Source: an uncultured Candidatus Saccharibacteria bacterium (GTDB lineage: Bacteria > Patescibacteriota > Minisyncoccia > Phycocordibacterales > UBA5272). Taken from it: a stretch of 58,886 nt of DNA. A program made the position numbers and the translations under genes. Every line of letters begins with the position of its first letter. The first letter of the stretch is position 1. The notes beneath the pieces were generated by a model. It had not been told where the DNA came from. It did not search any database and saw only the letters and a program-made list of their open reading frames with translations. The stretch lies in NCBI GenBank assembly GCA_964635125.1, contig CAZWMQ010000001.1, forward strand, positions 150,386-209,271, given 5' to 3'. Shown here one piece after another: positions 12,183 through 53,681 of this stretch.

Positions 12183-12350
12183 GTGATCTAATCATAACCT
12201 TTGCGCGAAATTATTTCGAGAGCCACTAATCATGCCGACCAGCGCCTCGGAGTACCTCGGCGCTCCGCCCTCGCCCCGTTTCCGCCTTTCCATGCTTTTT
12301 ATTTTTCGCGGGGGGATTCTTTTTGAAATTGTATGGGGCGGAAACGGGGC
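12183..12350 (+). repeat. Arm A: 168-bp perfect inverted repeat of 16387-16554 (attL arm)
   Basis: Base-by-base reverse complement match read from the sequence. Confidence 0.95.
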
Positions 12351-12876
12351 TCGGTCGGGCTTCTTCTAAGGAAGAAGCGATCGTCATGAAATGCAGTGGT
12401 GCTCGGGATTTCTTCGTTAGTGTTATCGTCCAGTGACCAAAGGGGATGCACCCTCGGCATCCGCCTCGGGCATTTCCGCTAGGGCTACTCGCGCCTAGAT
12501 GCCTAGGATTCCTGCTTATCCTCGCCAGTGCGCTCTGCGGAGCGCTGGCTCGGGCAGGAAACTTGTTGGGGGAAGGAAGGGTTCCTTCCCCCAGCTTCGC
12601 CTCGGTTCGTGCTCGCTACGCTCGCATTCCGCAGAGCGGAACAGGGCTCACCCCACCCGGCTCGCACAACCCCCATCCTCGTTTTCATATCCGCGTTTTG
12701 TGGTATCGCTTTCGCTGCTAGATTTCTGTATTGCAAGGTAACGGCGGCGCTCATCCTTTAGTCATGGACGCCCTAGCGGAAATGCCCGAGGCTCAAATTC
12801 TTATGTGCTTGCCCCGCGCCACCCATGCGCGCACATCCCGCCCGCAAAGGACAGGAGGGATCGCGGGCGGGGCTCC

Positions 12877-13749
12877 CTAGATAGAATCTAAAACAGTTTT
12901 CACTTCACCCATAAACTCAAATATCAAATCGTTTGAGATAATAATTCCCAAACTTTCATTCTCATCACCATTCACCATCGCAGGAATCCCAATCCTGCAT
13001 CCATACTGATCAACCGCTAACCCACCAGAGTTACCATGACTTATCTTTGCTGAAGTAAAAATTAAACCCTCATCCACAAGCAAACTACTCACAACCCCAT
13101 CTGTAATTGTTAGTGCGTATCCACCACTAATTGCAGGGTAGCCATAAATTTTCACAGGTTCTCCAAGTATTACATTTTCGTTTTTACAATACCGAGTGTC
13201 ATCATATGCAGGGAATACTTTAGGGTAATCGCCATGTGCCACACCCTCATCATCAATAAAGACATCGTGAATTTGAACAAACGCGAGATCATACTGATCG
13301 CTGATTTCAGGAATTACAATCGGATATGCTGAATAAATTTCACTTGGTGCGCCCGTGCTTGGATCAGGTAATATTACCAAGCAAACAGGGACTGCTTCCT
13401 TATCGGCAAGGACTGGAATTATGTGGGCATTTGTCAAAACAAGACCATCATCTGTCATTATTGTCCCAGAGCCGCCAGATGTATCTTCCTCTGTATTTCC
13501 CTCGCAATAAATATTCACAACAGATTTCGCAATTTCTTGATCTGTTGTAGTGGATGGTTCTATAGGAGTAAAAAGCCATACTCCAAAGATTAGAATTAAA
13601 ATTATCACACCCAAAATAACCAACTTCTTTTTTGTAAAAAAGTTTTTCTTTGGCGTCACAATATCTTTAGTCGTTGAATTATCCACTCCACAATTTGTGC
13701 AAAATTTTGTGCCCTCCTTATTTTCTTTACCGCAATGTTTGCAATACAT
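12877..13749 (-). CDS. Zinc-ribbon + TM + trypsin-like serine protease, 290 aa
   Basis: Start MYCKHCG...FCTNCG at 13749; TM; catalytic triad motifs TNAH, YDLA, GNSGG. Confidence 0.85.
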   Translation of the reverse strand: MYCKHCGKENKEGTKFCTNCGVDNSTTKDIVTPKKNFFTKKKLVILGVIILILIFGVWLFTPIEPSTTTDQEIAKSVVNIYCEGNTEEDTSGGSGTIMTDDGLVLTNAHIIPVLADKEAVPVCLVILPDPSTGAPSEIYSAYPIVIPEISDQYDLAFVQIHDVFIDDEGVAHGDYPKVFPAYDDTRYCKNENVILGEPVKIYGYPAISGGYALTITDGVVSSLLVDEGLIFTSAKISHGNSGGLAVDQYGCRIGIPAMVNGDENESLGIIISNDLIFEFMGEVKTVLDSI

Positions 13750-13751
13750 AA

Positions 13752-14216
13752 TTATTTTGGAGTGACCGCAGTGCCACAATTACCACAAAATTTGAGTTCC
13801 TTCGTAATTCCTGTTCCGCAACTGCCACAATAACTAAGATTTTCATCTGCACTTGCCAACTTTTTTGTCTCTATAACTTCAGCTTGAACAGTGTCCGGAG
13901 TACCGCCGTTTAGATGATTTAATTTTGCTTGATATTCCTCTTGTGTGATTTTTCCATCAAGTAATAACTGATTTGCTTCTGCAAGAGGTTTTATTTGTTC
14001 GGTTTGTTTGCTGTCCAAAGTTAAACCACGCTGGCATACTGGACAGCTAAGAAAATATTTTATTGAGTAGGGAAAAACTGGAATAAAAAAGAGTGTAAAC
14101 CATGTCATTATTCTAGTCAGCACCCAATAATCCTCATTGTGACAATTTGCACATAGATTTTTGAATGTAACCCCGATTTGTTTAATTGTTTGGTGCCCCC
14201 ATCCAAAAATAATCAT
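13752..14216 (-). CDS. Zinc-ribbon protein (N-terminal CxxC..FFIP..CxxC, SHOCT-like segment, C-terminal CxxC..CxxC ribbon)
   Basis: MIIFGWG..CANC..TWFTLFFIP..CPVC; LLDGKITQEEYQAKL; CGSC..FCGNCG. Confidence 0.8.
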   Translation of the reverse strand: MIIFGWGHQTIKQIGVTFKNLCANCHNEDYWVLTRIMTWFTLFFIPVFPYSIKYFLSCPVCQRGLTLDSKQTEQIKPLAEANQLLLDGKITQEEYQAKLNHLNGGTPDTVQAEVIETKKLASADENLSYCGSCGTGITKELKFCGNCGTAVTPK

Positions 14217-14221
14217 GTTAT

Positions 14222-14614
14222 TTAAAAGAGTTTTTTAAACTCATCTCGCCATATTGGTTTTTGGGCGAGTGCTATATATAAAACTGTTAATTTGATCAAG
14301 CGAAGTACAACTACAAAAATTACTATTGCAAGAACTGAATACCAGAATGCTGCGCCCGTAGTGTCTTCATATCCTCCATAATAACTCCAACTTGTGCTAT
14401 TTACTGACCAAACGACGGGTACAATCCAAAGAATCTGTATGTATAAAAATATGTATGCAACCTTTAGCAAACGATGCCACCATCGTTCATCAAGATTTTT
14501 TACAGGAGTTTTATTTATTCTTGATACAGTTGGAGAGGACACGATAGGATGACCGCATTTGGTGCAAAATTTATGAGTCCCATCATTTTTATTTCCACAG
14601 TTTTCGCAGTACAT
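14222..14614 (-). CDS. Zinc-ribbon + two-TM membrane protein
   Basis: MYCENCG...FCTKCG followed by two hydrophobic helices. Confidence 0.8.
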   Translation of the reverse strand: MYCENCGNKNDGTHKFCTKCGHPIVSSPTVSRINKTPVKNLDERWWHRLLKVAYIFLYIQILWIVPVVWSVNSTSWSYYGGYEDTTGAAFWYSVLAIVIFVVVLRLIKLTVLYIALAQKPIWRDEFKKLF

Positions 14615-14615
14615 A

Positions 14616-15521
14616 TTAATTATTGTTTATATAATCATAAACTTCCTGTGGCACTTCCATGCCTCCCGCTATAGCTTGTCTAAGATAAATTTTTGCATTA
14701 ACCGGATCTTCTTTTTGTGCGTACGAAAGTCCTAAGAAATACGCATAGACAGGTTCTCTACTAATATCTAAAGATTTCAGTAATGAAATCGTTTGGCTAT
14801 AGTTTTCATTAAAGTAATACGCAAGAGCAAGATTCTTTTTTGAGACATTGTCATTTTGGAGCTGATTTGCTTTTTGTGCGGAACTTAAAGCTTTAGTGTA
14901 GTCGGTGTATTGAGGATGAGCATCCTGCAAATCCATATAAAACAGCGCTAGTGAATTATTCACTTGAAAATCCTCAGAGTCTTTTGCATACGCCTTATTG
15001 TAGGAAATTAAAGCTGCATTATATTTACCTTCTAGCTCCGCAATCTCTCCAGAAATTAGGAAATAATCAACGGAATCTGTGGTTGTCAATGCAAGTGCCT
15101 CTTTAAAAGTATTTAGTGCTAAATCGTCTTTTCCCTCATGCGAATAAGCATAGGCTAGATTTTTTAAGCTGTTTATTTTGTTTGTGCTTGTTATTGCATC
15201 TTGTGAAGCCTGTTGAAATTGCGAGATTGCTTGATCACTATTTCCTGAATTGTAAGCATCCAAGGCCTTATTATTTGTTTCGACAGCAGTATTATCAACA
15301 GAGTTGATTGCCCCGAAGATAATTTTGACCAAAATCAACCCGCCAACAATTACAACAACAGCAACAGTTTTTATAATTCTACCTGTTGTCCAGGGTTCTT
15401 TAGGGATTGGAGGACGGACAGGCGGTGGAGGTGTTGTTTGGGTGACTGAAAATGCGGTTCCGCAATTAGTACAGAATTTTTTTGTGCCATCTGATTCAGT
15501 TCCGCAATTTTTACAAAACAT
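14616..15521 (-). CDS. Zinc-ribbon + Pro-rich linker + TM + TPR protein
   Basis: MFCKNCG...FCTNCG, TPPPPVRPP, TM, helical repeats (ALDAYNSGNSDQAISQFQQA, NLAYAY, ALISYNKA). Confidence 0.8.
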   Translation of the reverse strand: MFCKNCGTESDGTKKFCTNCGTAFSVTQTTPPPPVRPPIPKEPWTTGRIIKTVAVVVIVGGLILVKIIFGAINSVDNTAVETNNKALDAYNSGNSDQAISQFQQASQDAITSTNKINSLKNLAYAYSHEGKDDLALNTFKEALALTTTDSVDYFLISGEIAELEGKYNAALISYNKAYAKDSEDFQVNNSLALFYMDLQDAHPQYTDYTKALSSAQKANQLQNDNVSKKNLALAYYFNENYSQTISLLKSLDISREPVYAYFLGLSYAQKEDPVNAKIYLRQAIAGGMEVPQEVYDYINNN

Positions 15522-16080
15522 ATTTTTCTATTGATTGACGCAAACGATCGACCTCCTTTTGACTCTTTTGGAGGACTAATTTTTGCTCACCTTGAGTCAA
15601 GGTAAATTTGTTTTTTCCAAACTCAATTTTACCTTTTAATTCGTGTAGTGGTATTTTAAGAAAAACATCATTTACCCAGTGATTTGATGTGAGCTTGCCG
15701 TCAACCACCCACGCAGATCGATACCACTTACGCTTCTTTGTGTCGTTAGAACCACCAATTGCCACTCCAATCGCCATGCCAATAATATTTGCAATTACAA
15801 GACCGATGAAAAATCCCCACGCAGCACCACTGTATGAAGGTAATTTGATTGCATAAAGATTATCTTTATCAACCATAACATCCATGTATGGAAGAGAAAC
15901 AACAGCCCAAACTTTTTTACGACGCCAATCTTCACTATAAAAATCTGCTGTACCAAAAGACACAGAATCTTGTGTCTTAGGGGATGTTTTAATTTCTGAA
16001 GTGCCAGCTGTTTTACGACCGCAGTTTTGGCAAAATTGAGCATCCTTTTCTAGTTTTGTACCACAGTGTTCGCAAAACAT
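15511..16080 (-). CDS. Zinc-ribbon + glycine-rich TM protein
   Basis: MFCEHCG...FCQNCG; GAAWGFFIGLVIANIIGMAIGVAIGG. Confidence 0.8.
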   Translation of the reverse strand: MFCEHCGTKLEKDAQFCQNCGRKTAGTSEIKTSPKTQDSVSFGTADFYSEDWRRKKVWAVVSLPYMDVMVDKDNLYAIKLPSYSGAAWGFFIGLVIANIIGMAIGVAIGGSNDTKKRKWYRSAWVVDGKLTSNHWVNDVFLKIPLHELKGKIEFGKNKFTLTQGEQKLVLQKSQKEVDRLRQSIEKYVL

Positions 16081-16084
16081 AAAT

Positions 16085-16306
16085 TTATTTTATGAAATAG
16101 TCGATGCTTTTATTATAAATTTTAGCAAAGTTTTGAAGCTCGACTACATCTACTCTTTGCTGTCCCGATTCAACATTAGAAATATGCGATTGCGGACGCC
16201 TTAATTTCTTTGCCACTTCGGTTTGAGTCAATCCTGCCTCGAGTCGAGCTTTCCGTAATCGCTCGACAAAATAGGCATATTCCTTTGTTTGTCTTGACCT
16301 AGTCAT
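16085..16306 (-). CDS. XRE-family helix-turn-helix regulator
   Basis: LRKARLEAGLTQTEVAKKL..PQSHISNVESGQQR. Confidence 0.9.
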   Translation of the reverse strand: MTRSRQTKEYAYFVERLRKARLEAGLTQTEVAKKLRRPQSHISNVESGQQRVDVVELQNFAKIYNKSIDYFIK

Positions 16307-16386
16307 ATACTAACATTATCTATCCAAGAATTCAATATCCAAACTTTAGATATTGTGATAAACTAGATTTTGAAGACTTAGCCCTC

Positions 16387-16554
16387 GCCCCGTTTCCGCC
16401 CCATACAATTTCAAAAAGAATCCCCCCGCGAAAAATAAAAAGCATGGAAAGGCGGAAACGGGGCGAGGGCGGAGCGCCGAGGTACTCCGAGGCGCTGGTC
16501 GGCATGATTAGTGGCTCTCGAAATAATTTCGCGCAAAGGTTATGATTAGATCAC
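16387..16554 (-). repeat. Arm A' (inverted copy of 12183-12350)
   Basis: Perfect reverse complement; ends in TCAC 16551-54. Confidence 0.95.
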
Positions 16555-16665
16555 ATTCAGAAACTTCTCGGTCGGAAAGACCAAAATGGGCGCGCGCCGA
16601 AGGCGCGCTGTGTGGCGTGAATGCGAACTCTGCCTTGCGAATGCGGGCGAAATCGGAGGGCGGGC
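16551..16665 (+). repeat. Arm B: 115-bp perfect inverted repeat of 18135-18249
   Basis: Base-by-base reverse complement; shares TCAC core with arm A'. Confidence 0.95.
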
Positions 16666-16720
16666 TGAAAGCAAGAAATGAGATCTTAGTAGTTTCTCGT
16701 TTTGAATCCAAAATCTATTT

Positions 16721-18307
16721 ATGAACAAACCAAAATATTTTCTCTATGCTCGCAAGAGCACCGAAGATGATGATAAGCAAGTGATGTCGATTGAGGCACA
16801 GCTTTTTGAGCTTCGTGAATTTGCGAGCAGAGAAAATCTTGAAATTCTTGAGGAATTTCAAGAGTCGAAAAGCGCAAAGAGTCCGGGACGAGAAGTGTTC
16901 GGCGAAATGATGATGCGCATTGAAAAAATGAATGGAGTTGGTATTCTCGCGTGGCATCCTGACCGCTTGGCGAGAAATAGCATAGACGGAGGGCGCATCA
17001 TTTACGCCGTCGACACTTCAAAAATCGTCTCTTTGCGTTTTCCGACATTTTGGTTTGAACCGACACCGCAGGGGCTCTTTATGTTGCAAGTGGCGTTCGG
17101 CCAATCGAAATATTATTCCGACAATTTGAAACAAAATGTGGAGCGAGGTATGCGCCAAAAATTGCGCCGAGGAGAATGGCTTACAAAAGCTCCTTTCGGG
17201 TATGTGAATAATCCGCGAACGAGGAATATCGAACCTGATCCGGTGAAATCAAAGATTATCGTTCGCGCGTATGAACAATACGCAAAAGGAACACATACCC
17301 TCATTTCGCTGGCACAATTTTTGGCTGACCACGGTGTGACTACGAAGGCCGGAACGCCACTTGGCAAAGCTTCCGTGAAAAGAATGCTGACCAATCGTGC
17401 CTATTTGGGATTTACCAAGCATCGCGACGAGTATTTCACCGGAAGCTTTGCGCCAATTCTTTCTCCGACACTATTTGAAGCTGTGCAAAAGCAACTTTCT
17501 GAGCGAGCGCATCCAAGACATACGAAACAAGCACACGATTTTCCGTTTACCGGACTTTTTCGTTGTGGCGAGTGTGGGAGCATGATCACTGCACAATGGG
17601 CGACTGGCAAGTGCGGTGGGCGGTATCGGTATTATCGGTGCACGAAAAAGAACGGCGTGTGCTTGCAAAAGTATTTACAGGAAGATGCGCTCGCTCTCCA
17701 AGTAAAGGAACAGCTTCAATCAGTGTCGCTTCCCGAAGCGTGGGCGGAATATATGCTCAAAAAAGTAGAGGATTTTGAGCATGACGAAAAGAACGCTTCG
17801 GGAAGTCGTCTCGAACAGATGAAGAATGACCTCAAGAAGCTTGAAGCGAAGCTCGATGCGCTCGTTGATTTGTATCTAAATGGTGATATTGAGCGCGAGG
17901 CGTATCTCGCAAAGAAAGATGGTTTAATACGCCAAAAAATCTCGCTTCAAGCAAAATCTTCATCTGCCCGAGCCGAGAGAAAGAATTGGGTCGAACCCCT
18001 GCGGAAGTGGATTTTGGATTCAAAACACGCGGGGTTTCTGGCAAGCAGTACAAAGTACGCCGAAATGCGCGACTTTGTCCGTTCCTTCGGAACGAACCCC
18101 GCGCTTTTAAACAAAACTATTTCGATCTCATTTTGCCCGCCCTCCGATTTCGCCCGCATTCGCAAGGCAGAGTTCGCATTCACGCCACACAGCGCGCCTT
18201 CGGCGCGCGCCCATTTTGGTCTTTCCGACCGAGAAGTTTCTGAATGTGACCTTACCGGGAATCGAACCCGGATTACCGGCTTGAGAAGCCGATGTCCTAA
18301 CCGTTAG
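16721..18307 (+). CDS. Large serine recombinase (resolvase + recombinase + zinc ribbon + coiled coil)
   Basis: YARKSTE catalytic motif, AWHPDRLARN, KAPFGY, CGECG..RYRYYRC; last about 20 codons run antisense through tRNA-Glu. Confidence 0.95.
   Translation: MNKPKYFLYARKSTEDDDKQVMSIEAQLFELREFASRENLEILEEFQESKSAKSPGREVFGEMMMRIEKMNGVGILAWHPDRLARNSIDGGRIIYAVDTSKIVSLRFPTFWFEPTPQGLFMLQVAFGQSKYYSDNLKQNVERGMRQKLRRGEWLTKAPFGYVNNPRTRNIEPDPVKSKIIVRAYEQYAKGTHTLISLAQFLADHGVTTKAGTPLGKASVKRMLTNRAYLGFTKHRDEYFTGSFAPILSPTLFEAVQKQLSERAHPRHTKQAHDFPFTGLFRCGECGSMITAQWATGKCGGRYRYYRCTKKNGVCLQKYLQEDALALQVKEQLQSVSLPEAWAEYMLKKVEDFEHDEKNASGSRLEQMKNDLKKLEAKLDALVDLYLNGDIEREAYLAKKDGLIRQKISLQAKSSSARAERKNWVEPLRKWILDSKHAGFLASSTKYAEMRDFVRSFGTNPALLNKTISISFCPPSDFARIRKAEFAFTPHSAPSARAHFGLSDREVSECDLTGNRTRITGLRSRCPNR
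18135..18249 (-). repeat. Arm B' (attR arm, within recombinase 3' end)
   Basis: Reverse complement of 16551-16665, abutting the tRNA-Glu 3' end at GTGA. Confidence 0.95.
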
Positions 18308-18318
18308 ACGATAAGGCC
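18247..18318 (-). tRNA. tRNA-Glu(CTC), integration target
   Basis: GGCCTTA/TAAGGTC acceptor, TCGGC-TTCTCAA-GCCGG anticodon arm, GGTTCGATTCC. Confidence 0.95.
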
Positions 18319-27288: not shown

Positions 27289-29322
27289 ATGAAAAATAAT
27301 AAAATAATTTTACCAGATTGAGATAAAATTGCTGAGATTTTAAAATATAAAGAAAAGGATTTTCAGGAATTGTTAAAGAATTATATAAAAGATAAAGAAA
27401 TAATTTATAAAGAGATTAAGAGCATTAAAAAATCTGCCCGGACTTTTAAAAATACTATTTTGAGATTAGAAAGTTCGGATCAAGAATATGGCAATATTTT
27501 TAATCAAATTGCTAATTATGGTATGACGGCTAAAGATAAAACTTGAAGAGATCTGGCGAATAAGTTTAGAAAAAATTTATCTGAGAAAGTTATAGAGTTA
27601 GAATATGATAAAGAGATTTATAAAGCTGTAATGGATTATAAAGATGGTAATTATAAAAAAGAGAAAAGTTATTTAGATAAAGTTTATGGTACTGGAAGTC
27701 AAAAGTTATTTATAGATTTATTAAAAGTTTATAAGAGAATGGGATTTAATTTACCAGCCAATAAGCAGAAAAAATTAAAAGAAATAATTAAGAAATTATC
27801 AAAATCATCTCTTGATTTCTCTAAGAATATTTCTGAATATAAAGATTACATATTATGTAGTGAGAGTGAGATTGAAGGATTACCAGAGAATTTTGTTAAA
27901 ACCTTAGAGAAAGTTGATGGTAAATATAAGATTACTTTAGATTATCCGATTCTTCATCCATTTTTAACTTATGCTAAAAGTAGACCTAAAAGAAAAGAGA
28001 TTATTGATAAGAATTATAAAAAAGGTGGTAAAGAAAATTTAAAAATCTTAACTCAAATAATTAAATTAAGAAATGAGTTAGCAAAACTTTTAGGATTCAA
28101 GAATTTTGTTGATTATAATTTAGAGAATAGAATGGCAAAGAATGAAGTTAAAGTTAGAGGATTTGTTGAAGGACTTATTAAGAAATTAATTCCCGTAGCT
28201 AAAAAAGATTTAAAAGAGTTAAATGAATTTGCTAAGAATAATCTTGATAATTATAAAGATATTAAGGAGATTGATTATTATGATATTTCATATGTAGCGA
28301 ACAAATTAAAAGAAAATAAATATAGTTATGATAGTAGTAAGATTAAAGAATATTTCGAATTAGAGAGAACTTTGAAAGTAATGTTTGAGATATTTGGAGA
28401 ATTGTTTGATTTCGTAGCAACCGAAGTTAAAGACAAAAATATTTTAAAGATTAAAGTTTATAAAGAGGTAAAGATATATGAGTTTAAAGATAAGACTTCT
28501 TCAGAAATAATTTCTTATTTAATTTTAGATCTTTTCCCAAGGGATGGTAAATATGGACATGCATGCAGCTCAGAATTTATTTTCCCAGAAATGAGAAATG
28601 ATAAAAGAGTTATTCCAATTAATCAACTAATTTGTAATTTTAGTAAAGGAAATAAAAAGATACCAAGCTTATTAACACTTGGAGAAGTAGAGACTTTATT
28701 TCATGAATTAGGGCATGGGCTGCATTTTATGTTTGGGAAGAATAAATATATTTCCCAATCTGGATTTGGAGTGGTGTTTGATTTTGTGGAGACACCTAGC
28801 CAAATGTTAGAGAACTTTTTATTTGAAGAAAATAATTTAAAAAAATTATCTAAACATTATCAGTCTGGCAAAAGTCTAGATAGAGCAATAATTCAGAAAA
28901 TAATTAAAGGGAAAAACTTCTTAAACGGCTATAGTTATCTAAGACAAAATCTTCAAGCCTTATATGACCTGGATATACACTCTAATAAAGTGAAGAGTCA
29001 GGATTTAGCCAAATACTTTATTGATTTAATTAAAAAATATAATGGATTTATTTTACCTAAAAATAATATTTTTCCAGCTGGCTTCGGACATCTGACTGAT
29101 TATGCTGCCGGATATTATTCATATATGTGAGCTTTAGTATATGCAGATGATTTCTATTCTGTATTTAAAAATGCAAAAAATAAAAAAGAATTAAAAGAAA
29201 TAGGAAAGAGATATAGGGAAGAAATCTTAGAAGTTGGTGGATCTCGGGACGAGATGATTTCGGTCAAGAAATTCCTAAAGAGGAATCCTAATAATAAAGC
29301 TTTTCTTGAAAATTTAAGATAG
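27289..29322 (+). CDS. M3-family oligopeptidase, 677 aa
   Basis: LDLFPRDGKYGHA, FHELGHGLH, DFVETPSQ, GYYSYM(W)A; TGA 27319-21, 27544-46, 29128-30. Confidence 0.92.
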
Positions 29323-36943: not shown

Positions 36944-39121
36944 TTAATTTTTTACCCAATTTGTAACTAATAGTAAATCTTCGCTAACATTTTTAATATC
37001 TTTTCAGATCTCTTCAGTAAGAAAAGGCATAAATGGATGTAAAGTTATAATTAGATTTTTCAAAGTTATATATAAAGTAGCTTGAGCGGAAACTTTATCT
37101 TTATTATCATTAATTCTTACTTTTAAAGTTTCTAAATATTTATCACAGAATTCATGTCAGAAAAAAGCATAGATTCTCTCGCTAGCTAAATGTAGGCGAT
37201 AATTCTCAATATCTTCGGTTATTTCTTTAATTGTATTTAGAGTTTGATTATAGATATTTTTATCCTCTCCATTAATAATATTCTTAATATGATCTTGTTT
37301 TTTATCATAGTTTTCAGTTTTTTCTAAAACTAATCTGGTGGCATTTCAAACTTTATTAGCGAAATTTTTATAAGCTTTAACTTTATCTTCTGACAATCTT
37401 AGATCATTTCCTGGACCATTGCCAACTATTAAAGACATTCTTAAAGCATCAGTTCCATATTTGATAATTAATTCTCTAGGATCTAGAGCATTACCTAAAG
37501 ATTTACTCATTTTTCTGCCTTGATTATCACGAACCAGTCCATGTAAATAAGTTGCTTTGAAAGGAATTTGATTTAAGGCATATTTACTCATCATAATCAT
37601 TCGAGCTACTCAGAAAAATAAAATGTCATGTCCAGTTTCTAATAAATTAGTTGGATGATATTTTTTGAGATCAGGAGTTTTCTCAGGCCAACCCAAGGTG
37701 GAGAAAGTCCACATACCGCTTGAGAATCAAGTATCAAGTGTATCTTCGTCTTGAATTAAACTATCATCATCATTAAAGCCAACTGCTTTAATTTTTTTAT
37801 TTTGATCATATCAAACCGGAATACGATGACCATATCAGATCTGTCTTGAGATACATCAATCTTTTAAATTATTTACCCAATGGAAATATATTTTAGAAAA
37901 TCTCTCTGGAATAATTTCTAAATTATCTTTCTCAACGGCTTCTAGCATTAACTTTTTTAATGTGGTTCTATTTCCAAAGTGATTAAATTCTTTATTCACA
38001 GCGACAAATCATTGTAATTTCGGAAGTGGTTCAATAATTCCACCGGTTCGCTCAGCGGTGGAAACATTTTGAGTAATTTCTTTTTCCTCAATTAAGAGAT
38101 TATTTTCTTTTAACTTTTCAATGATAATCTCTCTGGCTTCTAGGACTTTTTTACCATCGAGCTCAGTATTAGTATTAATTATTTTGGCAAATTCATTAAT
38201 CACTTGTTTAGATTCTAAATTATGTCTCTCACCAATCTCCTCATCAATCTTAGAGTGAGCAGGAGTAACTCCGAGAGCTCCAGTTCCAAATTCCATATCT
38301 ACTTCTTTATCAGCGATAATTTTAATCTCTAAATTAACTCCACAGAAATTCACTTGAAAAGTTTTTCCGATATATTCTTGATATCGAGTATCATCTCCAT
38401 TAACTGCAACTGCAGTATCACCAAGCTTAGTCTCTGGTCTAGTCGTTGAGATAGCAATCGGAAAGTCTTTATCATATTTAAAAGTATAAAGCATAGCTTT
38501 CCTTTCCTCATAAACAACTTCATCATCAGAAATAACCGTCTGTCCTTTAGGATCTCAATTAATTACTCGATAACCTTGATAGATTAATCCATCTTCATAC
38601 ATTTTCTTAAACATAATATTCACCGCCTCATTTCTTTTTGAGTCTAAAGTGAAAGAAAGGCGAGATCAATCAAGTGTAGCTCCCATCGATTCAAATTGGG
38701 AGAGAATTGTCTCTTGCGAATTTAAAGCAAAATCATTAACTCTTTTTAAAAATTCTTCTCGACCCAGGTCATGTCTTTTAAGATTTTCTTTTTTAAATAA
38801 TTCTTTCTCTACTACCAATTGAGTAGCAATAGCCGCATGGTCAGTTCCGGGAAGTCAGAGAGTGCGATAATGATTCATACGATAATATCTAATAATAGTA
38901 TCTTGGATAGCAAGCATTAAGGCATGTCCAGTGTGAAGTGTCCCAGTAACATTTGGTGGCGGTAAGATCATTGAGAAAATTTTCTCATTATCATCCTTAT
39001 CAAGAGTAACATTTTTTAAATTATCTGGATTGAAATAACCTGAGTCTCGTCAAGCTTTATAATTAGGATTCTCAAACTCTTCTGGATTATAGGCTTTTAA
39101 ATATTTTTCAGGTAACGACAT
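36944..39121 (-). CDS. valS: Valyl-tRNA synthetase (short form lacking C-terminal coiled coil), 725 aa
   Basis: [14 protein letters not shown](W)LPGTDHA, D(W)CISRQI(W)YGHRIPV(W)Y, DT(W)FSS, KMSKS; about 13 in-frame TGA; TAA 36944-46. Confidence 0.95.
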
Positions 39122-51932: not shown

Positions 51933-53681
51933 ATGATAATAAAAAATATTCTTAAAAAGATTTTTAAAAAAAGAAAAAGAAGCGGAGAAATAAATCCAGA
52001 AGATATCTTTTTAGACTCGACTAATTTAATTGGTTTAGATAATGATAGAGAAGAAGCTTTTTTCAACAGACCAATTTCAATTTTTATGGGATATTTACCA
52101 GCGAGTTTTTTATTAATAGTTTTATTTGTTTTTAGTTATAGATTATATATCTTAAGTATTAAGAATTTCGATTTTTATAAAGATAAAGCTAACAATAATC
52201 GTTATAATGCTAATATAATTTTGGCTAATCGAGGTGAAATTTTTGATCGTAATGGACAAATTTTAGCTGAGAATATAGTATCTTCTACTACTAATATTTT
52301 AAAAAGAGAATATATTAAAGACGGGGGGTTTTCTAATATTTTAGGGTATATTAATTATCCTAAAAAAGATGATTCAGGAAATTATTGGCAAAATAATTAT
52401 ATTGGTAAGGATGGAGTAGAACTTATTTATAATGACCTATTATCAGGTATTAATGGGCAACAAATTATTGAAAAAGATGTTAAATCTGCAGTAGAGTCAG
52501 AAAATCTTTTAGTTAAACCAATTCCCGGAGCTAATTTAAATTTAACTATAGATGCTGAATTACAAAAAAGATTATTTAACTCTACTAAAGCCGTAGTTAA
52601 TAATAGGAATTTTATATCTGGAACAGGAATTATTATGAATATTAAAAACGGAGAGATTCTAGCCATGGTTAATTATCCAGAATATGATAATAATTTGATG
52701 ACCAATAGTAATAGTCAAGAAGATAATCAAAAAATTAAAAACCTTCTACAAGACAAAAGGAATCCTTTTCTAAATAGAGCCGTATCAGGATTATTTACTC
52801 CTGGATCAGTAGTTAAACCATTTATGGCTTATGCTGCTTTAAATGAGAAAGTAATTACTCCAGAGAAACAAATTTATTCATCAGGTCAATTAGTTATAAA
52901 AAATATATATGGAGGTCCAGACACTGTATTTCGTGATTGGAAAGCTCATGGTTATATTAATGTAGTTAGAGCTTTAGCGGAGTCGTCGGATGAATATTTT
53001 TATCAAGTAGGAGGTGGCTATAAAGATCAACCCGGTTTAGGGATTGATAGGATTGATAAATATGCTAAACTTTTTGGTTTGACAGACGAGACAAAGATTG
53101 ACTTACCGAATGAAGAAACAGGAATAATACCAACTCCAGAATGAAAAAGAATTAATTTTTTAGATGGAGATTGATTATTAGGAGATACTTATCACACTTC
53201 AATTGGACAATATGGTTTCCAGGTTACTCCAATTGAATTGATACGATATATTGCTGCCATTGGTAATGGTGGATATTTAGTAACTCCACATATTTTTCTT
53301 TCAGCTACTTCAACCGAGGATTCTTCTTTGATAGACCAGTTAAATTCTAAGACTTGGCCTATAATTGATTTAGGTTTAGATAAATCACTTTTACAATATG
53401 TCGAAGAGGGTATGAAAGAAGTAGTTTTACCTAATGGGACTGTGCCACAATTAAATATTAAAGGATTAAATATGGCAGTTAAGTCTGGAACAGCTGAACT
53501 AGGTATAGTTAAGGGTAAAGTCAATTCTTTAATTACAGGTTATTTTCCTTTTGATAATCCAAAATATGTCTTTACGGTTATAGTTGAAAATGGTCCAGTT
53601 GGAGCACCTTCTCCAGCGGCACAGGTAATTCAGCCAGTTTTAGAATATATAGCTTCTCATAAAGATGATTATTTACCATAG
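51933..53681 (+). CDS. mrdA: Penicillin-binding protein 2
   Basis: PGSVVKP (SxxK), ESSDEYFY, KSGTAE; TGA 53142-44 and 53172-74; synteny with mreBC. Confidence 0.9.

Follow-up and report, generated by a model that had tools for sequence, protein, structure and literature searches.

Lambda cI-rexAB, lactococcal Sie2009 and Ltp of S. thermophilus are prophage-encoded superinfection-exclusion and accessory (moron) modules. The operon described here resembles such modules in that a small helix-turn-helix (HTH) regulator is followed by membrane proteins and the whole is carried as autonomous cargo. It lies in a 58,886-nt stretch of DNA from an uncultured Candidatus Saccharibacteria bacterium (the window, in whose coordinates all positions are given), on the minus strand at 12877-16306, and encodes an XRE-family regulator and five zinc-ribbon proteins, g1 to g5, which are referred to as the cassette. 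A second group of conceptual relatives is formed by ydjFGHL of B. subtilis and other systems associated with the phage shock protein (PSP) response, in which zinc-ribbon and SHOCT-like membrane proteins have been proposed to build sub-membrane complexes (PMC11237479). Comparison of the cassette with its homologues shows a conserved, horizontally mobile, self-regulated unit of membrane proteins whose ribbons are predicted to be cytoplasmic. Literature searches found no description of it, and it appears to be undescribed in the databases and literature searched.

The six co-oriented genes follow one another from the regulator to g5 with gaps of 4, -11, 1, 5 and 2 nt, the same values as in the initial annotation of the locus. 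The XRE-family HTH regulator (16306-16085, minus strand, as are all genes of the operon; 73 aa; Pfam HTH_3, 48 bits) precedes g1 (16080-15511, 189 aa), which has an N-terminal zinc ribbon and a PH/PTB-like domain with a Gly-zipper helix insert. In g2 (15521-14616, 301 aa), an N-terminal zinc ribbon, a Pro-rich linker and one transmembrane (TM) helix lead to a predicted extracytoplasmic tetratricopeptide repeat (TPR) domain; g1 and g2 overlap by 11 nt, and the overlap is kept in orthologous loci. The third protein, g3 (14614-14222, 130 aa), has an N-terminal zinc ribbon and two TM helices with a short outside loop. The fourth, g4 (14216-13752, 154 aa), combines a Zn_ribbon_15 domain, a hydrophobic beta-hairpin insert, a SHOCT-like helix pair, a linker and a C-terminal zinc ribbon, and g5 (13749-12877, 290 aa) has an N-terminal zinc ribbon, one TM helix and a predicted extracytoplasmic trypsin-like serine protease domain. 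The start of g5 is the ATG of MYCKHCG, matching the orthologues, and not the upstream TTG at 13779.

Zinc ribbons are the feature common to all five proteins. The strict motif M[FY]CxxCG-x(6-10)-[FY]CxxCG begins g1, g2, g3 and g5, the four proteins originally annotated as opening with a shared ribbon, and no other open reading frame (ORF) in the window contains it. The looser pattern CxxC-x(6-20)-CxxC is found in 6 of the 146 six-frame ORFs of at least 60 aa in the window, namely the five cassette genes and the internal finger of PriA. Because five of only six such ORFs belong to the cassette, the clustering of ribbons is not due to chance. Against a Pfam cut-off of 25 bits, Zn_Ribbon_1 (PF13240) matches g1 (31.2 bits), g3 (28.5) and g5 (26.9) above threshold and g2 (20.8) and the C-terminus of g4 (19.5) below it; all four Cys of the g2 ribbon and of the g4 C-terminal ribbon are invariant or nearly so among orthologues. 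Ribbons of orthologues group by gene and not by locus, and their non-Cys residues are gene-specific (FCQNCG in g1, GTKSDGTKKF in g2, HKFCTKCGH in g3). This grouping rules out concerted evolution of the ribbons. A ribbon in every component of every variant, together with these gene-specific residues, fits better with a specific docking role than with a generic one.

The partner domains of the ribbons differ from protein to protein, largely along the lines first annotated. The TM-TPR architecture of g2 (TPR_2, 41 bits) and the two TM helices of g3 were confirmed, as was the membrane-anchored trypsin-like protease of g5 (Trypsin_2, 57.8 bits). Across 16 distinct orthologues of g5, the residues H109, D154 and S241 and four Cys of the ectodomain are each conserved in 95% or more. 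The above-threshold Trypsin_2 match and the intact His/Asp/Ser triad place g5 among the S1 (trypsin-like) serine peptidases. It falls outside the HtrA/DegP/DegS family, with NCBIfam scores of 30-40 bits vs cut-offs above 400; no PDZ domain match was obtained, and the protein ends approximately 35 residues past the catalytic Ser. With its intact triad and conserved Cys, g5 is an active-site-intact protease of the disulfide type, which points to an extracytoplasmic location. The positive-inside rule and conserved Cys pairs likewise predict that both the TPR domain of g2 and the protease domain of g5 lie outside the membrane.

Two of the proteins proved more complex than initially described. The Gly-rich helix of g1 is present as a hydrophobic Gly-zipper (residues 85-121) with basic clusters on both sides, but it is inserted in a PH/PTB-like fold, and g1 is thus not simply a TM protein. 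In the AlphaFold 2 (AF2) model of g1 (predicted local distance difference test, pLDDT, 72.5) the ribbon is followed by this fold, and all of its top PDB neighbours are PH or PTB domains, with weak E-values of ~1e-2. The PH-like/Gly-zipper domain also occurs without the N-terminal ribbon, in proteins of 135-180 aa that match profile positions ~40-190 (matches P0250-P0290), and the ribbon of g1 therefore looks like an added tag. For g4, the C-terminal ribbon and the second ribbon type both stood: Zn_ribbon_15 (PF17032, cut-off 28.9 bits) matches residues 21-148 at 51.4 bits, and C22, C25, C58 and C61 are invariant in 36 sequences. The SHOCT-like segment (PF09851, cut-off 27 bits) is a weak match below threshold (19.3 bits, E 9e-4), with a conserved LLxDGKITxEEY motif and helices modelled at 69-86 and 92-103. 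AF2 (pLDDT 67) folds the hydrophobic WFTLFFIPxxPY stretch of g4 into a beta-hairpin, not into TM helices, followed by the two helices, a disordered linker and the C-terminal ribbon. No structural neighbours of the g4 model were found. The protein is a candidate cytoplasmic scaffold.

At the level of domains, the cassette shares single features with several described systems and does not have the defining features of PSP-type, adaptor-domain conflict or DegS/RseA-type systems. It resembles ydjFGHL and other PSP-type operons in its membrane-associated proteins with zinc ribbons and SHOCT-like helices. However, no PspA/Snf7, Band-7, TPM, PspC or Toastrack domain was found by Pfam in the six proteins, the ectodomains are a TPR domain and an S1 protease, and the cassette is mobile and restricted to Patescibacteria. 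DegS/RseA-type proteolysis, with its zinc-binding anti-sigma factors, likewise pairs an S1 protease, anchored outside the cell by an N-terminal TM helix, with single-pass proteins that have their zinc domain in the cytoplasm and a sensor domain outside. Neither the cassette nor the island that carries it contains a PDZ domain, an extracytoplasmic function (ECF) sigma factor, an anti-sigma domain or a site-2 protease. The cassette motif is a CxxC ribbon and not the HxxxCxxC anti-sigma motif, and its XRE regulator is dispensable. Similarly, the effector-associated domains of nucleoside triphosphate (NTP)-dependent conflict systems are small adaptors repeated on operon partners, where they are presumed recruitment tags, and those systems use TPR and trypsin-like modules as well (PMC7159879). 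Unlike them, the cassette has no STAND or other NTPase core, its tags are membrane-proximal ribbons, and all of its partners are membrane proteins.

The family is rare: a g1 profile search of 1.84 billion representatives returned ~57 clusters at E<=1e-30, and g1 has 46 relatives among 5.8 billion clusters. Full-length matches in species-representative genomes come from Saccharibacteria, Paceibacterota, Nomurabacteria and other Patescibacteria, and two other matches are short contigs assigned to Gammaproteobacteria bins. The order g1-g2-g3-slot 4-g5 on one strand holds in every locus of sufficient length. It recurs in 13 or more independent loci whose proteins share 40-78% amino-acid identity, with gaps of 1-5 nt and the g1/g2 overlap retained, and supports the five genes as a conserved functional unit; homologues scattered singly, which would have spoken against the unit first proposed, are not the pattern observed. 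In slot 4, g4 can be replaced by unrelated multi-TM proteins of 172-224 aa that likewise end in a C-terminal ribbon (loci L009, 8126-8644; L014, 2236-2823; L121, 1765-2370; L126, 5218-5892; L124, 923-1477), which suggests that this position may be a functionally equivalent "C-terminal ribbon" position. Rare variants without the TPR domain or without the protease still have ribbon-tagged partners.

The regulator is a less constant component than the membrane proteins. Upstream of XRE, alignment of 10 loci and blastn identified a palindrome at 16334-16354 on the minus strand, AATATC[C/T]AAA-N-TTTGGATATT (also written AATATCCAAA-N-TTTGGATATT), which is a candidate operator overlapping a TTATCA-16-GATATT promoter. 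XRE and the palindrome precede the cassette in ~8 lineages; other lineages have DUF6804 in their place or neither, and the chromosomal copies have neither XRE nor the palindrome. The XRE-less chromosomal copies (L014, L016, L018, L105) show that the membrane proteins can, on genomic evidence, work without the regulator. An XRE protein with an HTH_3 domain is thus present as originally annotated, but it is optional and does not define the system. Promoter and terminator scans within the operon gave nothing beyond shuffle background, and none of the RNA runs searched for the locus contained the operon.

The TPR ectodomain of g2 is, on comparison of alleles, the only part that has been exchanged by recombination. 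Nucleotide identity to the closest relative, L100, is 88-98% over XRE and g1, falls to 59-69% only across the TPR-coding part of g2, and returns to 78-95% in g3-g5; the TPR allele of the window is closer to the alleles of phage copies of the cassette. Several metagenome assemblies stop just past g1 or start at g2, as would be expected if g2 alleles co-exist. Contigs of runs X2 and X3 (15336-15617) match the body of g2 but part from it at 15485, where AT-rich sequence unrelated to it takes over; these wastewater samples therefore seem to contain this TPR allele in another genomic setting as well.

The initial annotation of the operon missed its setting, an island of 6063 bp and foreign GC content (12183-18245) that carries no other cargo. 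A contig of soil metagenome run X6 joins 12182 directly to 18246, omitting 6063 nt, and this empty site defines the island ends. GC content is layered, with ~28% in the host, 35-40% in the operon, 45-50% in the recombinase gene and 55-60% in the flanking non-coding DNA. A large serine recombinase (16721-18307, plus strand; Resolvase, Recombinase and Zn_ribbon_recom domains; PHROG 95 integrase, 2.4e-82) integrated the island into the 3' end of tRNA-Glu(CUC) (18246-18318, minus strand). The left end (12183-12350) consists of the attL core GTGATCT (12183-12189) and a 168-nt P' arm, and the right end (18135-18252) of the P arm and the attR core GTGACCT (18246-18252), which lies within the 3' acceptor end of the tRNA gene. 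The junctions therefore read host|GTGATCT|P' at attL and P|GTGACCT|tRNA at attR. The features of a large-serine-recombinase integrative element are all present: the domains, att sites that share a short core, here in a tRNA 3' end as in other tRNA-targeting islands of this kind, and an empty target site observed elsewhere. Islands of the same type occur at other tRNA-Glu genes, with recombinases 93-95% identical at the nucleotide level.

Unlike other large-serine-recombinase islands, this one contains in its interior an inverted second copy of its entire attP region (279 nt), and has two nested inverted-repeat pairs. The copy (16387-16665) reads P|GTGATCT|P' on the minus strand, an intact attP-like site, so that the core GTGA[T/C]CT occurs at 12183, 16548 (inverted) and 18246. 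The first repeat pair joins 12183-12350 with 16387-16554 (168 nt, 100% identical) and the second 16548-16665 with 18135-18252 (118 nt, 99% identical). Related islands keep the nested repeats with arms that differ by ~14% from those of the window, and the inverted attP-like copy is conserved and co-varying in L108-L112; P arm copies are near-identical within L109 (115-nt exact run) and match at 117 of 139 positions within L108 and L110. Repeat unitigs with double the depth of their flanks (three wastewater runs), contigs from soil (X8 and X10) that reach across the inner junction, and the co-varying arms of diverged relatives rule out an assembly artefact. An invertible promoter switch is unlikely, as the conserved promoter-operator sits within the flanked segment. 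The internal inverted attP predicts flip isomers, a circle with two inverted attP sites and a configuration-dependent recombinase C-terminus. In the integrated state, no stop codon closes the recombinase ORF ahead of attR, and it continues across the core into the tRNA-Glu gene, giving the tail TGNRTRITGLRSRCPNR; the ending predicted for the circle or the flipped isomer is IITFARNYFESH. No other record of the exact 528-aa product was found.

Between the left arm and the 3' end of g5 is a hairpin-rich non-coding stretch of 526 nt (12351-12876, minus strand, 55-60% GC) with several long perfect hairpins (23-bp and 12-14-bp stems) and folding z-scores of -4.65 on the minus and -3.2 on the plus strand. 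It is ~84% conserved in the related islands L099/L101, and deletion variants occur in two metagenomes. A known structured-RNA family was rejected for 12183-12880, with no Rfam match even at E<=1.

The Trp codon usage of the island is foreign to its host. ORFs outside 12183-18245 are broken at TGA and are fused when TGA is read as sense, for example at 36944-39121, 51933-53681 and 27289-29322. Aligned with PDB homologues, in-frame TGA faces Trp in 13 of 15 alignable cases (ValRS 10/12, PBP2 2/2, M3 peptidase 1/1), and the host genes use TGG 73 times and TGA 60 times. TGA appears to be a Trp codon in this host. The window SecA, 73-74% identical to proteins of Paceibacterota/Parcubacteria metagenome-assembled genomes, places the host among Paceibacterota-like Patescibacteria. 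The seven island genes (12877-18307) contain 25 TGG and no TGA, and their stops are TAA or TAG only; under host usage the chance of 25 TGG without TGA is 0.55^25, or ~3e-7. Lacking TGA, the island genes are therefore read identically under the standard and the TGA=Trp codes. Stop-codon adaptation of the island to the host code is not supported, since TAA accounts for 113 of 125 stops in the whole family and TGA for only 5 of 125.

Relatives of the cassette are found in phage accessory-gene regions, in other recombinase islands, or fixed without XRE in Patescibacteria chromosomes. In three related phage genomes (L003, 11243-15140; L005, 11267-15447; L007, 11249-14768), the order is tail genes, lysin, a restriction-modification (R-M) slot, XRE-cassette, S49 peptidase, TrpR, phosphoribosyltransferase and tyrosine integrase. 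The slot directly upstream of the cassette holds three different R-M systems. Downstream, the S49/NfeD-like peptidase, the TrpR-like repressor, the phosphoribosyltransferase-like protein and the tyrosine integrase are always present. This position between lysis genes and integrase, beside variable defence genes, is a further likeness to prophage exclusion and moron modules. The cassette has no sequence or fold relationship to such modules, however, and differs from them in its five ribbon-tagged components, its predicted outside protease and TPR domain, and its occurrence on mini-islands and chromosomes. Large serine recombinases lie near the cassette in other loci too, and the most recurrent of 200 flanking protein clusters from 25 loci are serine recombinases (7), tyrosine integrases (4) and DNA methylases, with recombinases and integrases together making up 11 of the 200. 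Known defence genes near the cassette include PD-Lambda-2 A/B/C in L123, at a distance of 1.3 kb; in L122, an AbiP2 reverse transcriptase is 2.2 kb away from a solo g1.

Because the cassette is the sole cargo of a minimal island, occupies phage accessory slots beside defence systems and swaps ectodomain alleles, as in an arms race, it is most readily, though tentatively, read as a mobile, self-regulated envelope conflict module that serves superinfection exclusion or anti-phage defence. In such a module, the five proteins would assemble at the cytoplasmic membrane, where four type-II membrane proteins would hold their distinct N-terminal ribbons in the cytoplasm. A sub-membrane hub would be formed by the PH-like g1 and by g4, which has two ribbons and SHOCT-like helices and would lie entirely in the cytoplasm or at the membrane periphery. 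Outside the membrane, the TPR domain of g2 would act as an exchangeable recognition module for a variable external ligand and the serine protease of g5 as the effector; the complex might bind and cleave incoming phage proteins or a surface receptor. A conflict role would benefit whichever phage, island or chromosome bears the cassette. It is conceivable, though rather doubtful, that the cassette represents a class of immunity or exclusion system not recognised before, spanning the envelope and so far confined to Patescibacteria, in which a hub of five ribbons couples an interchangeable TPR receptor to a protease, and which would have its own regulator and travel as plug-in cargo that avoids TGA in a host reading TGA as Trp.

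Several observations weigh against the conflict module. The anti-phage role raised in the initial annotation found no support in PADLOC-DB v2, where the cassette matched no known defence system and g1-g4 gave no matches; XRE matched only generic HTH models, and g5 only the protease portion of RT-Protease_XI (E 2.5e-10). PHROGs and NCBIfam gave generic domain matches and no system-level match. The placement on mobile elements is clear, but known defence genes adjoin only ~5 of 25 non-redundant loci, a raw count without a background rate, and several copies sit among housekeeping genes, which would equally fit a housekeeping envelope role. The models of g1 and g4 are of moderate confidence, the membrane topology of the g1 insert is ambiguous, and the N-terminal ribbons could be mere topogenic anchors. 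A tblastn search of GenBank phages with g1 and g5 gave no matches, and an IMG/VR search gave matches at the ribbon level only. The overall interpretation first given to the operon was thus partly borne out, in that a conserved ribbon-tagged unit with a predicted outward TPR domain and protease was found, but it overlooked the island and gave XRE a defining place.

Other explanations share part of this evidence. A cytoplasmic zinc domain, TM helix, ectodomain, outside S1 protease and adjacent HTH regulator recall DegS/RseA-type logic, g5 has weak NCBIfam DegS/HtrA matches, and a conserved candidate operator precedes XRE; the outside g5 could then cut the TPR sensor g2 (or g3), and the freed ribbon fragment would control XRE and with it the life cycle of the island or prophage. 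Such regulated proteolysis is nevertheless unlikely. XRE signalling is disfavoured because XRE is dispensable: most lineages, and all chromosomal copies among them, have the five membrane genes side by side but no XRE. By Pfam, the cassette lacks a sigma factor, a site-2 protease and a PDZ domain, and there are no further genes on the island that could be regulated. ImmR/ImmA-type control, in which a protease cleaves the XRE repressor, was ruled out, as the catalytic domain of the anchored g5 is predicted to lie outside the cell. A role in the epibiotic lifestyle, where the complex would process pili, S-layer or adhesins as a lysogenic conversion function and alter host-bacterium attachment, is about as improbable: no pilus or adhesin genes are linked and known defence systems neighbour several loci, even though the restriction of the family to Patescibacteria, the outside TPR domain and protease, the variable TPR allele and the phage position, a classic conversion-gene slot, would all suit it.

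The addiction or abortive-infection module that might be read from a minimal element with only this cargo, in which the g1 Gly-zipper permeabilises the membrane and is restrained by the other proteins or XRE, thereby stabilising the island, is very improbable. The hydrophobic Gly-zipper helix of g1 between basic clusters and the XRE protein, a common antitoxin-type partner with weak HipB and Y4mF matches, would fit it, but stable chromosomal cassettes that lack XRE also contain g1 homologues, no toxin family matched, and the conservation of five genes would be left unexplained. A housekeeping module for envelope quality control or membrane stress, PSP- or HtrA-like and hitch-hiked by mobile elements, would account for the copies among housekeeping genes and for ribbon and SHOCT-like domains, which have been proposed as sub-membrane assembly modules in PSP-type systems such as ydjFGHL (PMC11237479). 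It is quite unlikely for a family that is rare, patchy and mostly on mobile elements, has a recombining ectodomain and includes no PspA, Band-7 or Toastrack partner by Pfam. The five proteins might also form no complex at all and be tandem paralogues with independent functions, each using its ribbon only as a topogenic cytoplasmic anchor. Cross-matches reveal homology among the N-terminal ribbon-linker-TM modules of g1, g2, g3 and g5, and such ribbons are common on monoderm membrane proteins (Firmicutes matches); yet fixed order, the conserved overlap, co-inheritance at 40-78% identity, one-block transfer and conserved gene-specific ribbon residues beyond the Cys ligands make independent functions hardly probable.

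The locus bears on more than one aspect of Patescibacteria biology. The island is a compact natural vehicle with one recombinase, one tRNA target and one cargo operon, and its nested inverted att copies are unusual. UGA-to-Trp reassignment has been listed only in four other phyla (PMC13462651, a 2026 paper), and the TGA=Trp code of the host, if confirmed genome-wide, would extend reassignment to a further phylum. N-terminal zinc ribbons are widespread and unexplained on monoderm and archaeal membrane proteins, and the cassette allows a clean test of whether they are assembly tags. Reports of defence systems in Patescibacteria genomes are few, and a single phage of these bacteria had been described (PMC12366544). 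The cassette provides a concrete candidate for the cell-surface fights of these tiny epibionts and their prophages.

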